A stretch of 64,000 nucleotides of DNA from a phage, in assembly GCA_013585095.1 (NCBI GenBank), contig GCA_013585095.1_3039.1; one strand, 5' to 3'. The notes below the pieces were generated by a model. The model had not been told where the DNA came from, ran no database searches, and worked only from the letters and a program-made list of their open reading frames with translations. Positions 11,770-16,103 of the stretch are shown here, in pieces; the first letter of the stretch is position 1; every line of letters begins with the position of its first letter. The position numbers and the translations under genes are program-made.

Positions 11770-12327
11770 ATGCAGAAAACGAATCCGGGTTTGCAGAGAC
11801 TATTTCAGATTCCGACATTTACTCTATCGAACAGCGATTTAACCAATGAAATGAAGGTCAAAATTGCTGATACAGCAAGATACTCTTTAAAACAAAACCC
11901 GAACCAGGATAAGGCAGAAGTTATCGAAAGATGTCGTATCGCTGTGTATGCTGAGTATGTTGTAGCAGATTGGTTAAGCGGGTATGTTAATAAAGGTCAA
12001 GAAGATGTCGATGATCCGTACACATATGCATGGGATGTTTTAGCGCATCCAAAATATTGCGGGCTTCGTGTAGAAGTCAAAACACATCAAACTGACTCGC
12101 GTTGGATTTCGGTAACAACGGGATGCAGCGGAGAGTATCCATATGGTTCTGGAATAAATTTAGGGCCCATTCTAAATCATCAAGTCGCTGACTGTATAAT
12201 TATATTCAACACTAAAGAAATTCATCCAGGTGTCATCCAGTACACTCCGAAGTTCATCGGTGACAGAGAAGACCTTCGTAAGGTTGTAAGAAAAAGCAAC
12301 TACAACGGATGGTATCTTTCCATTTAA
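11770..12327 (+). CDS. endonuclease IV-like (denB position and size)
   Basis: 185 aa equals T4 DenB length; location after rIIB. Confidence 0.5.
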   Translation: MQKTNPGLQRLFQIPTFTLSNSDLTNEMKVKIADTARYSLKQNPNQDKAEVIERCRIAVYAEYVVADWLSGYVNKGQEDVDDPYTYAWDVLAHPKYCGLRVEVKTHQTDSRWISVTTGCSGEYPYGSGINLGPILNHQVADCIIIFNTKEIHPGVIQYTPKFIGDREDLRKVVRKSNYNGWYLSI

Positions 12328-12345
12328 AAATTTTTTCACAAAACG

Positions 12346-12375
12346 GTTTACATACCACAAGGACCGTGGTACTAT
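12346..12375 (+). promoter_or_regulatory. T4-type early promoter with A/T-rich upstream element
   Basis: aaaattttttcacaaaacGGTTTACataccacaaggaccgtggTACTAT. Confidence 0.55.
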
Positions 12376-12403
12376 TACCCTATCAACTACGGAGGAGCGG
12401 AAA

Positions 12404-12667
12404 ATGAAATTTAAATTTTATTACGCTAAACATAAAATAACTGATGAGTTTGTGTCAGTTGAATATTCTAGCGATGATGAAGGTATGATTTATACTCGCT
12501 TAGGATTATCGCATTGGGAGTCTGATACGCCTTATTTTTCAACTCCCGAAGAAATTACACGCTTAGTTAATGGTCATATGAATGACCACTGGAATGTAAT
12601 TCTTTCAGATAGTCTTAAAGCGGCTATTAATAGTAATGAAATGAAAATCGCTGAGATTGAGTTATGA
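12404..12667 (+). CDS. hypothetical protein
   Basis: 87 aa; early promoter and GGAGGAG RBS upstream. Confidence 0.45.
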   Translation: MKFKFYYAKHKITDEFVSVEYSSDDEGMIYTRLGLSHWESDTPYFSTPEEITRLVNGHMNDHWNVILSDSLKAAINSNEMKIAEIEL

Positions 12668-12853
12668 GTTCACTATGGTGGTGTTTCGTTTGGTTAATTA
12701 GTATTCCATTAATTTGTTTAACATTTACTTTTGTAATGAGATTATTATGAAAATTTTGAATTCTGTACTTATTGCTTGCGCGTGGTGGGTTGCACAGGTT
12801 TCAGCGGTAGTAGTTGGTATTCACATTTATTACGAATATTTTTAAAAAAGTTG

Positions 12854-12882
12854 TTTACAAGACTGTTCTTCCGTGGTACTAT
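12854..12882 (+). promoter_or_regulatory. T4-type early promoter
   Basis: gtttacaagactgttcttccgtggtactat. Confidence 0.55.
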
Positions 12883-12910
12883 TACTCTATCAACTACGGA
12901 GGAACAGAAA

Positions 12911-13024
12911 ATGAAAAAGATTATTAAAGCTATATGGAATGTAGTTATAATATTAATAGTTTTGAGTATATTCCCAATCGTTTTAATGATTGATGTATTA
13001 AACGCTTACTTTGGATTTATGTGA
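12911..13024 (+). CDS. small hydrophobic membrane peptide (37 aa)
   Basis: MKKIIKAIWNVVIILIVLSIFPIVLMIDV...; RBS GGAGGAA; promoter upstream. Confidence 0.4.
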   Translation: MKKIIKAIWNVVIILIVLSIFPIVLMIDVLNAYFGFM

Positions 13025-13031
13025 GGAAAAT

Positions 13032-13229
13032 ATGAAGCGTAAACGCAGTGCTTTTACATTTATTGAATGGTTTTTCGATAATATTTTTCCGGCTTTATTC
13101 ATTTTCATGCTGATTTTTGCCTTAGGTTCAGTTGTAGTTGGAATCTATTTGATGGCGGTAGTCGGAATGGATATTCATCAAAATGGTTTAAAATCCGTAG
13201 TTGAAACAATTTGGAATGGTGTAAAATAA
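13032..13229 (+). CDS. small membrane protein (65 aa)
   Basis: ATG after GAGGAAAA; hydrophobic core FPALFIFMLIFALGSVVVGIYLMAVVG. Confidence 0.4.
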   Translation: MKRKRSAFTFIEWFFDNIFPALFIFMLIFALGSVVVGIYLMAVVGMDIHQNGLKSVVETIWNGVK

Positions 13230-13344
13230 TGAATTTACTAAACATTTGGTTTTATATTCTTATGTTTTACATTGGCGCAAATTTTCCATATTGGATGGGA
13301 TGGTCAACAACTGCATTTGGATTTTATACTCCTTGAGGTGAATT

Positions 13345-13560
13345 ATGAAAATCTTTAAAGATGTAAAAGTTGGTGAAATTTTCTGTTTAGATAACGGTGA
13401 TCAGTTAATTCGTATTTCACCTCTTAAGAGCACTAGCGAGAAACCGACAGTTAATGCTACTTTAGCAAATAATAGTAATGAACGTTTCTGTATTGAAAAT
13501 GATACTGAAACTTACACCGTAGAAGAATTCTGGGAATTGAGCGTCGACTGCGACGAGTAA
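13345..13560 (+). CDS. hypothetical protein
   Basis: 71 aa, ATG with GAGGTG RBS. Confidence 0.45.
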   Translation: MKIFKDVKVGEIFCLDNGDQLIRISPLKSTSEKPTVNATLANNSNERFCIENDTETYTVEEFWELSVDCDE

Positions 13561-13620
13561 TTTAATGGCCGTGTGTATTCATGCGGCCTTGGAGTAGAAA
13601 ATAATTTAGAGGAAATTAAT

Positions 13621-14079
13621 ATGAAATATATGACTGTTACTGATCTGAACAACGCAGGTGCTACTGTTATTGGTACAATCAAGGGTGGTGAATGGTTTTT
13701 GGGAACTCCGCATAAAGATATTTTATCTAAACCTGGATTTTACTTTTTAGTAAGTAAATTAGATGGTCGTCTATTTAGTAATCCATGCGTGTCTGCACGA
13801 TTTTATGTAGGTAATCAGCGTTCTAAGCAAGGATTCAGTGCAGTTCTAAGTCATATTCGTCAACGTCGGTCTCAGCTTGCACGTACTATTGCAAATAACA
13901 ATGTTCCATACACAGTATTTTATCTGCCTGCTTCTAAGATGAAACCTCTGACGACAGGATTTGGTAAAGGTCAGTTAGCTTTGGCGTTTACTCGTAATCA
14001 TCATTCTGAGTATCAAACACTTGAAGAAATGAACCGTATGTTGGCTGATAACTTTAAATTCGTTTTGCAGGCATATTAA
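13621..14079 (+). CDS. ndd: nucleoid disruption protein
   Basis: 152 aa from ATG 13621 (GAGGAAA RBS); matches remembered T4 Ndd ([13 protein letters not shown]...). Confidence 0.75.
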
Positions 14080-14159
14080 TGAGTAATTTCCACAACGAAC
14101 ACGTGATGCAGTTCTATCGTAACAATCTTAAAACCAAAGGCGTCTTCGGACGCCAGTGA
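14079..14159 (+). CDS. stp: Stp peptide (activator of host PrrC anticodon nuclease / inhibitor of EcoprrI)
   Basis: 26 aa [26 protein letters not shown], identical to remembered T4 Stp; not in ORF track. Confidence 0.85.
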
Positions 14160-14166
14160 GGAAAAT

Positions 14167-14322
14167 ATGAAATTTGTTCACGGTATAGCCTTTTTCTGTT
14201 GGTTCTTTTTATGCATCGGAACAGTAATAACTGGAGAAACTTCAGTATTTTTGCAAGCATCAGCTCAGGGCGTATTAGCGATTTTATCATTATTCGCGTA
14301 CATTGGTTCTAAAAATAGTTGA
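14167..14322 (+). CDS. small hydrophobic membrane peptide (51 aa)
   Basis: MKFVHGIAFFCWFFLCIG...; paralog of next ORF (SVFxQAxAQG motif). Confidence 0.4.
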   Translation: MKFVHGIAFFCWFFLCIGTVITGETSVFLQASAQGVLAILSLFAYIGSKNS

Positions 14323-14332
14323 GGAGAATATT

Positions 14333-14491
14333 ATGAATATCGCAAAATTATTAGGAGTTATTTCATTTATTTGTTGGATAGTAGCATGTGTTTTAACTAT
14401 CTGTATTGATGCTAGCAGTGTGTTTTCGCAAGCTTTAGCTCAGGGTATGTGTGCATATTTAACATTTGTGTTGTTATCTACTAATGATTAA
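14333..14491 (+). CDS. small hydrophobic membrane peptide (52 aa)
   Basis: ATG after GAGGAG; track start 14303 is upstream extension. Confidence 0.4.
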   Translation: MNIAKLLGVISFICWIVACVLTICIDASSVFSQALAQGMCAYLTFVLLSTND

Positions 14492-14624
14492 GAAAATCTT
14501 GGGCTATTCATTAGCCCTTGCTATTTTATTAATAGCACTATATTATGGAGTAATGTTTGGATTAATTCAAGTCGTGCTTTTCATTTCTGATGTTATTATG
14601 GCACTACATTCACTAGTATGGTAA
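14484..14624 (+). CDS. small membrane peptide (ac-like position just upstream of gene 52)
   Basis: 46 aa MIKKILGYSLALAILLIALYYGVMFGLIQVV...; not in ORF track. Confidence 0.35.
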   Translation: MIKKILGYSLALAILLIALYYGVMFGLIQVVLFISDVIMALHSLVW

Positions 14625-14628
14625 ATTT

Positions 14629-15957
14629 ATGCAACTGAATAATCGCGATTTAAAAAGTATCATTGATAATGAAGCATTGGCTTATGCTATGTACACGGTT
14701 GAAAATCGTGCTATTCCAAATATGATTGATGGATTTAAGCCAGTTCAACGATTTGTTATTGCTCGAGCTCTTGATTTGGCACGAGGAAATAAAGATAAGT
14801 TTCACAAACTCGCTTCTATTGCAGGTGGTGTAGCGGACCTTGGATATCACCATGGTGAAAACTCTGCACAAGATGCGGGGGCTTTGATGGCTAACACTTG
14901 GAATAATAACTTTCCTTTATTAGATGGTCAAGGAAACTTCGGTTCTCGTACTGTCCAAAAGGCAGCAGCTAGTCGTTATATTTTTGCTCGTGTAAGTAAA
15001 AATTTCTATAACGTATATAAAGATACTGAATATGCTCCAGTACATCAAGATAAAGAACACATTCCGCCTGCTTTCTATTTGCCTATTATTCCTACTGTTC
15101 TTCTTAATGGCGTTTCCGGTATTGCAACTGGTTATGCAACTTACATTCTTCCTCATAGTGTTTCTTCTGTTAAGAAAGCTGTACTGCAAGCTCTTCAAGG
15201 AAAGAAAGTAACTAAACCGAAGGTAGAATTCCCAGAATTTCGTGGTGAAGTCGTTGAAATTGATGGGCAATATGAAATTCGTGGAACATATAAGTTTACT
15301 TCACGAACTCAAATGCATATCACTGAGATTCCGTATAAGTATGATCGTGAAACTTATGTGAGTAAAATCTTAGACCCACTTGAAGATAAAGGCTTCATTA
15401 CATGGGATGATGCTTGTGGTGAGCATGGTTTTGGATTCAAAGTTAAATTCCGTAAAGAATATTCTTTGAGCGATAATGAAGAAGAACGCCATGCAAAAAT
15501 TATGAAAGACTTCGGGTTGATTGAGCGTCGTTCTCAGAATATTACCGTCATTAATGAGAAAGGAAAACTGCAAGTTTACGATAACGTAGTTGATTTAATT
15601 AAAGACTTTGTTGAAGTTCGTAAAACTTATGTCCAAAAACGAATTGATAACAAAATCAAAGAAACTGAGTCAGCTTTTCGTTTAGCCTTTGCCAAGGCAC
15701 ATTTCATTAAGAAAGTAATTTCAGGTGAAATTGTTGTACAAGGTAAAACTCGCAAAGAACTGACCGAAGAACTTTCTAAAATTGATATGTATTCTTCTTA
15801 TGTTGATAAACTAGTTGGAATGAATATTTTTCATATGGCTTCCGACGAAGCAAAGAAACTTGCTGAAGAAGCTAAAGCTAAAAAAGAAGAAAACGAATAT
15901 TGGAAAACTACTGATGTAGTTACAGAATACACCAAAGATTTAGAGGAAATCAAATGA
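14629..15957 (+). CDS. 52: topoisomerase II medium subunit (GyrA-like)
   Basis: 442 aa as in T4; AIPNMIDGFKPVQRFV and AASRY active-site Tyr region. Confidence 0.9.
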   Translation: MQLNNRDLKSIIDNEALAYAMYTVENRAIPNMIDGFKPVQRFVIARALDLARGNKDKFHKLASIAGGVADLGYHHGENSAQDAGALMANTWNNNFPLLDGQGNFGSRTVQKAAASRYIFARVSKNFYNVYKDTEYAPVHQDKEHIPPAFYLPIIPTVLLNGVSGIATGYATYILPHSVSSVKKAVLQALQGKKVTKPKVEFPEFRGEVVEIDGQYEIRGTYKFTSRTQMHITEIPYKYDRETYVSKILDPLEDKGFITWDDACGEHGFGFKVKFRKEYSLSDNEEERHAKIMKDFGLIERRSQNITVINEKGKLQVYDNVVDLIKDFVEVRKTYVQKRIDNKIKETESAFRLAFAKAHFIKKVISGEIVVQGKTRKELTEELSKIDMYSSYVDKLVGMNIFHMASDEAKKLAEEAKAKKEENEYWKTTDVVTEYTKDLEEIK

Positions 15958-16103
15958 GTCCATTCATAGGTATTACAAGCGCTGCATTAGTATCCGGTAG
16001 CATTTTACTGGCGGGTTTAGGTGTTGTTCCAGCCGTAGCAGGAGGTCTTCTTGCGTTCGGAATTCAACGTGTTATCATGACAGTTATCACAGTCATGCAG
16101 TAA
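15954..16103 (+). CDS. small membrane peptide (49 aa)
   Basis: overlaps gp52 stop; strong terminator follows; not in ORF track. Confidence 0.35.
   Translation: MSPFIGITSAALVSGSILLAGLGVVPAVAGGLLAFGIQRVIMTVITVMQ

Follow-up and report, generated by a model that had tools for sequence, protein, structure and literature searches.

The 64,000 nt stretch of phage DNA analyzed here (NCBI GenBank assembly GCA_013585095.1, contig GCA_013585095.1_3039.1), referred to below as the window, carries a cluster of eight very short open reading frames (ORFs) between a denB-like gene and gene 52. A first-pass annotation, made from the letters of the sequence alone, had described these as genes for tiny hydrophobic peptides grouped around ndd and stp, and had placed them in the corresponding region of the T-even phages. 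The eight ORFs are indeed found on the + strand at the positions given there, each with an ATG start codon, and the stp gene listed among them encodes a product with 100% identity to T4 Stp (Table 1). The gene order on the + strand is denB.1, denB, an 87-aa ORF, ndd.6, ndd.5, ndd.4, ndd.3/2a, ndd.2, ndd.1, ndd, stp, two copies of ac, 52.1 and 52. T4 has the same order from rIIB/denB to gene 52, in agreement with the placement by the first-pass annotation. Along the whole of positions 12300-14700, DNA identity to Shigella phage A2 and to Enterobacteria phage Aplg8 is 98%, and 557 phage records match this interval, nearly all of them from Tequatrovirus, the genus of T4. Judged by its sequence, the window is from a T4-like phage (Tequatrovirus), and the region is the non-essential stretch of such a phage that extends from denB to gene 52.

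Table 1. Genes and sequence elements in and around the small-ORF cluster of the window.
Feature	Position	Strand	Description
ndd.6 ortholog	12664..12750	+	28 aa; 27/28 residues identical to T4 Ndd.6; phrog_8851, E 3e-17; one hydrophobic segment
ndd.5 ortholog	12747..12845	+	32 aa; 32/32 residues identical to T4 Ndd.5; phrog_5011; one hydrophobic segment
ndd.4 ortholog	12911..13024	+	37 aa; 36/37 residues identical to T4 Ndd.4; phrog_3098; N-terminal KK..K, one transmembrane-length segment
Intact DUF7248 gene (ndd.3/ndd.2a)	13032..13229	+	65 aa; PF23906, 71.9 bits against a cut-off of 27, residues 6-63; phrog_2401
ndd.2 ortholog	13229..13336	+	35 aa; aromatic-rich, no charged residues; phrog_4135
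acA, divergent Ac-family paralog	14167..14322	+	51 aa; phrog_2501, E 4.9e-26; T4 is without acA
acB, ortholog of T4 ac	14333..14491	+	52 aa; phrog_2501, E 3.7e-25; T4 Ac plus one Thr near the C-terminus
52.1 ortholog	14484..14624	+	46 aa; DUF7396 (PF24129), 80.1 bits against a cut-off of 27, residues 1-46; 44/46 residues identical to T4
orf87	12404..12667	+	87 aa, hydrophilic; phrog_2390, RB51ncORF272c-like; outside the eight; stop overlaps ndd.6 start
ndd.1 ortholog	13345..13560	+	71 aa, hydrophilic context gene; pN/pS 0.09
ndd, nucleoid disruption protein	13621..14079	+	Context gene; pN/pS 0.09 (control)
stp	14079..14159	+	26 aa, hydrophilic; PF08133 (Nuclease_act, anticodon nuclease activator), 75.3 bits against a cut-off of 25; 26/26 residues identical to T4 Stp
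Gene 52, topoisomerase II medium subunit	14629..15957	+	Downstream border of cluster
Promoter-like site, T4 early type	12347..12375	+	TTTACA, 17 nt, TG-extended TACTAT; consensus scan; before orf87, ndd.6, ndd.5
Second promoter-like site, T4 early type	12854..12882	+	Consensus scan; before ndd.4, DUF7248 gene, ndd.2, ndd.1
46-nt direct repeat, copy 1	12364..12409	+	-10 hexamer, leader, GGAGGA Shine-Dalgarno, ATGAAA
46-nt direct repeat, copy 2	12871..12916	+	93% identity to copy 1
G+C-rich hairpin	13567..13588	+	GGCCGUGUG-UAUU-CAUGCGGCC; between ndd.1 and ndd; no U tract after

Every one of the eight translated aa sequences matches a PHROG family. For Ndd.6, Ndd.5, Ndd.4 and Ndd.2 the matches are full length, with E values from 3e-17 to 4e-26, and synteny with T4 is kept. 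A local copy of Pfam gave no family for ndd.6, ndd.5, ndd.4, ndd.2 or acB, and acA gives only a sub-threshold match to DUF1846_C there (13.2 bits against a cut-off of 27). T4 (NC_000866, T4p265-T4p275) and Aplg8 (NC_054902) display the same gene order, strand and flanking genes (denB and gene 52), with 94-100% aa identity. Relative to T4, the window has an extra 87-aa ORF, an intact 65-aa ORF and a second Ac paralog, all three of which are shared with Aplg8. With identity and coding status taken jointly, it is almost certain that all eight ORFs are named, annotated genes, i.e., ndd.6, ndd.5, ndd.4, ndd.3/ndd.2a, ndd.2, two copies of ac, and 52.1. The observation and the interpretation in the first-pass annotation are therefore sound, but the genes had already been annotated and named. 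They have been annotated in T4 for a long time and are by now covered by PHROG and Pfam families, and the literature cites the cluster as a block of predicted membrane proteins. What is gained is an evidence-based statement that the eight tiny ORFs are real genes under selection, which carries little weight as a discovery.

Start signals differ along the cluster. A clear Shine-Dalgarno sequence precedes four of the eight ORFs (GGAGGA at 12911, GAGGAAAA at 13032 and 14167, and GAGGAG at 14333). The other four starts overlap the preceding gene, through ATGA at 12664 and 12747 and TAATG at 13229, and by 8 nt at 14484, and because of these overlaps translational coupling is suggested for them. With regard to ORF calling, a minimum length of 60 aa would list only three of the eight, as the TTG-extended ORFs 12776-13024, 13011-13229 and 14303-14491. 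The absence of the short ORFs from the ORF track is thus probably an effect of the length threshold.

The peptides are hydrophobic, as had been noted, with grand averages of hydropathy between 0.64 and 1.82. In seven of them a 19-residue window reaches a Kyte-Doolittle mean of 2.1 or more, and 20 or more consecutive residues are uncharged. The aromatic-rich ndd.2-like peptide is the weaker one, with a maximum Kyte-Doolittle value of 1.29. The product of each ORF is 28-65 aa long and has one or two hydrophobic helices of membrane-spanning length, with insertion and topology as predictions. The description of the cluster as small membrane peptides, mostly without known function, holds.

Hydrophobic ORFs may also arise by chance in T-rich, A+T-rich DNA, as T in the second codon position gives hydrophobic residues, and such ORFs would be untranslated. 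The base composition is in keeping with this, in that the + strand of the interval has 36.8% T compared with 31.7% for the window; 34 hydrophobic small ORFs are present on the + strand of the window, and T4 mass spectrometry detected none of the peptides. However, such ORFs are enriched in the interval. Seven hydrophobic ATG ORFs of 28-70 aa lie on the + strand within about 2 kb, or 3.4 per kb, compared with 0.53 per kb for the whole window. This density is 6-fold over the window average and is confined to one strand, and the - strand of the interval has no hydrophobic small ATG ORFs. The ORFs begin with a Shine-Dalgarno sequence or a coupled start, homologs can be recognized in genera whose gene 52 is only 67-88% identical, and the reading frames are intact in nearly all loci compared. 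Purifying selection is strong and frame-specific, and the contrast between frames effectively refutes an origin by chance, which is left with a negligible probability.

The selection data are as follows. Seventeen Tequatrovirus loci were aligned for each ORF (the window, T4, T2, T6, RB51, RB18, Ac3, Aplg8 and others), and the ratio of nonsynonymous to synonymous differences (pN/pS) was obtained from pairwise Nei-Gojobori counts in all three frames. A scan of IMG/VR with Ndd yielded only five loci. In the annotated frame, pN/pS is 0.12 for ndd.6, 0.11 for ndd.5, 0.08 for the DUF7248 gene, 0.12 for ndd.2, 0.04 for acB and 0.26 for 52.1; off-frame values are mostly near or above 1. The controls gave 0.09 for ndd and 0.01 for the gene 52 N-terminus. 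Three results fit less well with purifying selection on every gene: ndd.4 has a pN/pS of 0.94 within Tequatrovirus, from only a handful of I/V/A changes, the value of 0.45 for acA comes from three distinct sequences only, and 52.1 has one off-frame value as low as that of its own frame.

These weak within-genus cases are settled at greater evolutionary distance, ndd.4 and 52.1 by cross-genus pN/pS and acA by its homologs in other genera. Among the window, Dhakavirus JS10 and Gaprivervirus P479, the pN of 52.1 is 0.06-0.08 compared with a pS of 0.39-0.44 (pN/pS about 0.14-0.18), and that of ndd.4 is 0.05-0.24 compared with a pS of 0.43-0.72 (pN/pS 0.12-0.38). Homologs of cluster genes are found in Mosig-, Dhaka-, Gapriver-, Winkler-, Karam- and Jiaodavirus, and those of ndd.4, the DUF7248 gene, ac, 52.1 and ndd.6 occupy the same slot in other Tevenvirinae genera. 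There are ndd.4 homologs in five other genera, an ndd.6 homolog in Dhakavirus JS10, and DUF7248 homologs in Winklervirus, Karamvirus and Jiaodavirus. The first-pass annotation had proposed an analysis of frame conservation and Ka/Ks across T-even genomes, with a lack of conserved frames as the outcome that would speak against real genes. That outcome was not obtained, because the frames are conserved and show low pN/pS values. The eight ORFs are thus genuine genes that encode proteins and are under purifying selection.

Nearly all of the 17 loci have intact reading frames, and the exceptions are mainly classic laboratory strains. In T2, ac is truncated at codon 10 and there is a stop at codon 33 of the DUF7248 gene; in T6 the C-terminus of Ac is frameshifted; and ndd.6 is frameshifted in one IMG/VR locus (L004). 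It may be noted that T4 (with a frameshift in the DUF7248 gene), T2 and T6, the classic T-even strains, each carry a lesion in the cluster.

The T4 lesion accounts for two of the gene names in use. In the T4 record NC_000866 a 1-nt deletion breaks up the 65-aa DUF7248 gene, so that ndd.3 (26 aa) and ndd.2a (40 aa) stand there as separate genes; the window has atgaaGcgt where T4 has atgaacgt. In the re-sequenced strain T4T a single 198-nt ORF is annotated at this locus, and a published annotation table lists ndd.3 as a PHROG singleton (CRISPRi-ART supplement). From these three observations together, the split is an oddity of the T4 reference record and not biology. A second difference from the T4 record concerns the start of ndd.4, which is annotated there as a 42-aa gene from an upstream ATG that lies inside the Shine-Dalgarno region. 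Since the corresponding codon, within 12895-12913 of the window, is ACG, and since the other Tequatrovirus records that were checked annotate a 37-aa ndd.4, the 37-aa form is likely the real product.

The two ORFs between stp and 52.1 had been recognized as paralogs by a shared aa motif. They are named acA (14167-14322) and acB (14333-14491) in the present analysis. Both contain SVFxQAxAQG, both belong to phrog_2501, and at the DNA level a 47-nt repeat with 72% identity links them, so that the paralogy is well founded. The last copy overlaps the start of 52.1. The closest database homologs carry PF26944 in precomputed annotation. Like other members of the family, acA and acB are about 50 aa in length and have a predicted two-helix hairpin and the SVFxQAxAQG motif. 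An AlphaFold2 model of acB displays two helices, at residues 3-24 and 28-51, with a mean pLDDT (predicted local distance difference test) of 78.9. In this model the motif would lie at the start of helix 2, beside the turn. Residues S29, V30, F31, Q33, Q37 and G38 are invariant in 13 aligned Ac sequences that include both window copies and represent both subtypes. G38, the residue altered in the acridine-resistant T4 mutant G38R, falls within the motif noticed in the first-pass annotation.

The two copies are not close relatives. Only about 43% identity is found between acA and T4 Ac; acA is closer to Ac homologs from Mosigvirus and Jiaodavirus, with which it has the turn TGET[ST]V in common (TGETSV in acA). 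An identical acA is present in Aplg8, where it is annotated as 'acridine resistance protein'. Among the 17 Tequatrovirus loci, T4 and most others have only acB, RB51 and Ac3 have only acA, and both are present in three (the window, Aplg8 and vB_SsoM_113). Of 502 matching phage records, 51 carry the acA-acB tandem, which makes it the minority state; several of these records already annotate two 'acridine resistance' genes. The Ac family has two divergent subtypes, which are sometimes found in tandem. A variant of Ac that is longer by one threonine, as acB is, has already been described in a preprint on Ac, whose survey considers only matches at 93% nucleotide identity or above and does not mention the divergent subtype (10.1101/2025.06.30.662393). 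The distinction between acA and acB is a minor addition and not a discovery.

The Ac family is very small. An exhaustive profile search with the alignment of Ac against 1.84 billion representative proteins gave only eight matches at E <= 0.001, and one of these (P0027, 275 aa, with a repeated VFLQxLKQG) is likely a chance match to the motif. Word-indexed protein searches gave 7-8 clusters each, all from T4-like phages or from phage-sized contigs labelled as bacteria. With so few matches among so many proteins, Ac is without detectable homolog outside the T4-like phages. One metagenomic sequence, a Logan contig (P0010), has a single 81-aa ORF in which residues 1-18 of Stp are fused to a full Ac; this is probably a frameshift or assembly variant.

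Of the genes in the cluster, ac is the only one with a gene-level phenotype, that of acridine sensitivity, and its loss renders T4 resistant to acriflavine. Expression of ac sensitizes E. coli to acriflavine and ampicillin, deletion of ac makes the phage resistant, and G38R inactivates Ac and also gives resistance (10.1101/2025.06.30.662393). A block by Ac of the efflux pump AcrAB-TolC is proposed in the same preprint, and a 2026 PNAS paper restates it as an assumption. By this proposal dye would accumulate in the infected cell because Ac would block the pump. The motif at the start of helix 2, including G38, would be a likely contact surface. As the target of Ac, AcrAB-TolC is putative, and we regard the assignment as tentative.

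The proposal brings to mind E. coli AcrZ and other small inner-membrane modulators of bacteria, which are of similar size and have hydrophobic helices; the effect of Ac on AcrAB-TolC would be comparable by hypothesis. AcrZ has one helix, whereas two are predicted for Ac, and there is no detectable sequence similarity between the two. A BLASTP comparison of Ac with an AcrZ sequence entered by hand gave no alignment at E <= 100, and a profile search of the PDB with Ac gave nothing at E <= 10. On these two results, the first subject to the hand-entered sequence, Ac was rejected as a homolog of AcrZ.

Information on the other genes comes mainly from T4. The early class of transcripts includes those of 52.1, ac, stp and ndd.2-ndd.6, and Ndd and Ndd.1 are detected by mass spectrometry (PMC9697503 Table S2). 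In CRISPRi-ART, ndd.1-ndd.6, ndd, stp, ac and 52.1 are all scored 'Not Fit', with no fitness defect on knock-down (PMC11879866 supplement), and the deletion saDelta9, which runs from 52.1 through denB, keeps about 50% of the phage yield (PMC6071114). The cluster genes go unmentioned in the HIDEN-SEQ and CRISPRi-ART main texts; the CRISPRi-ART supplement lists them. All papers retrieved under the names ndd.2a to ndd.6 dealt with neurodevelopmental disorders ('NDD'), and a search for T4 studies that used ribosome profiling or treated small proteins gave nothing specific.

The explanation that accounts best for these data, and that we consider quite probable overall, is that the cluster is a set of early genes for small membrane peptides that modify the infected cell. 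The peptides would insert into the inner membrane of the host within the first minutes of infection, where each would serve a larger membrane protein as a small accessory subunit, or inhibit it. Ac would be one such case, and the other peptides may be condition-specific host-takeover or host-range factors. As a general mode of action, the evidence leans toward this early insertion and modulation of larger membrane proteins. Weighing against the explanation are several points besides the lack of AcrZ or PDB relatives of Ac: membrane insertion and topology of the peptides are predictions only; the ndd.x genes and 52.1 are without known phenotype; the link between Ac and AcrAB-TolC is a proposal made in a preprint; and the proteins of 52.1, ac, stp and ndd.2-ndd.6 are given as 'NA', i.e., undetected, in T4 mass spectrometry (PMC9697503 Table S2). 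The window itself adds no new handle on the function of the T4 early small membrane proteins.

A role in lipid metabolism should also be considered, in which at least one peptide would reprogram phospholipid synthesis of the host, with stimulation of phosphatidylglycerol, by way of a membrane-bound lipid enzyme or regulator. When 52.1, ac, stp, ndd, ndd.1-ndd.6 and denB are deleted in saDelta9, the increase in phospholipid synthesis that follows T4 infection, notably that of phosphatidylglycerol, is almost completely lost, and the authors of that work point to several genes for predicted membrane proteins in the region (PMC6071114). However, the mapping of this phenotype goes no further than the 3.4-kb deletion, in which ndd and denB are lost as well, and PHROG and Pfam profile searches show no lipid-enzyme motif in any of the peptides. 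We therefore regard this role as improbable. A further conjecture has two parts. The two Ac paralogs, of which acA looks like the older type and acB like a Tequatrovirus-specific derivative, would be non-redundant, perhaps with two host membrane targets such as two efflux pumps, and separately an ndd.x or 52.1 peptide would be the unmapped phosphatidylglycerol determinant. If so, in phages with both acA and acB the function would work across wider conditions or hosts. The conjecture is a long shot.

Alternatively, the peptides may be counter-defence or exclusion factors, which inhibit membrane-associated abortive-infection systems of the host or of prophages or are sensed by them, or they may take part in superinfection exclusion or in the timing of lysis. 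The cluster is variable between phages, expressed early and dispensable on laboratory hosts, as is typical of accessory host-range genes, and neighbouring genes are of this kind. There is, however, no direct evidence for such a role for any of the eight, and early transcription together with the lack of a charged C-terminal tail speaks against holins. In T4 genetics the holin (t), the antiholin (rI) and the exclusion proteins (imm, sp) are assigned to different genes, which also counts against a role of this type, and we consider it unlikely. A holin or antiholin identity was tried and rejected for the cluster peptides, given the early T4 transcripts, the neighbours ndd, stp and the topoisomerase gene, and C-termini with no more than 1-2 charges. 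Both the lipid and the counter-defence roles overlap the early modulation of membrane proteins favoured here and do not exclude it.

The genes are arranged in two or three + strand units behind early-type promoter-like sites, tightly packed and with coupled starts. The -10 hexamers of the two promoter-like sites lie within a 46-nt repeat, which heads two successive groups of small genes. The pattern of this repeat has two exact matches in the window, where none is expected by chance. Repeated promoter modules have been proposed as recombination substrates for cassette shuffling in the hyperplastic regions of T4-like phages, where PeSL (promoter-early stem-loop) cassettes likewise have repeated early-promoter/leader modules that flank small accessory ORFs (PMC2839356, PMC4122927); ndd.4/ndd.5 served as an example of cassette exchange in the 2014 PeSL paper (PMC4122927). 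It is plausible from the sequence that the 46-nt repeat of the window is a substrate for such exchange. The window differs from PeSL cassettes in that neither promoter copy has a significant stem loop upstream; when the 60-66 nt before each copy were folded, the result was no better than for shuffled sequences (z +0.75 and -0.66).

In the evolution of the cluster, small gene cassettes are gained, lost and swapped. Thus orf87 may be present, absent or replaced, and acA and acB are found alone or in tandem. The position between denB and ndd.6 is held by orf87 in 12 of the 17 Tequatrovirus loci and is without it in T4, T2, RB18 and ESh26. A pN/pS of 0.07 shows strong purifying selection on orf87, and homologs are found in Mosig-, Dhaka- and Gaprivervirus. 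In ESh26 a 57-aa ORF lies between ndd and stp (L020 3737-3910), and this phage is the only Tequatrovirus in the sample with the family. The same family is found directly after ndd in Winkler-, Karam- and Jiaodavirus (L011 2963-3136, L013 2685-2858 and L014 2983-3156), and the window is without it. Its members are small membrane proteins with two hydrophobic segments and a C-terminal FERLCxxCGV[IY][KE].

The hairpin between ndd.1 and ndd has a folding energy of -16.8 kcal/mol for the 71-nt stretch folded, with a z-score of -2.55, and it might act in processing or stability instead of termination. An Rfam search of the interval gave no match at E <= 1, and an RNA element in the interval was rejected on this result. 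Just beyond the interval examined, a 49-aa hydrophobic ORF at 15954-16103 overlaps the stop codon of gene 52 and is at the position of T4 motA.1; it is a further small membrane-protein gene.

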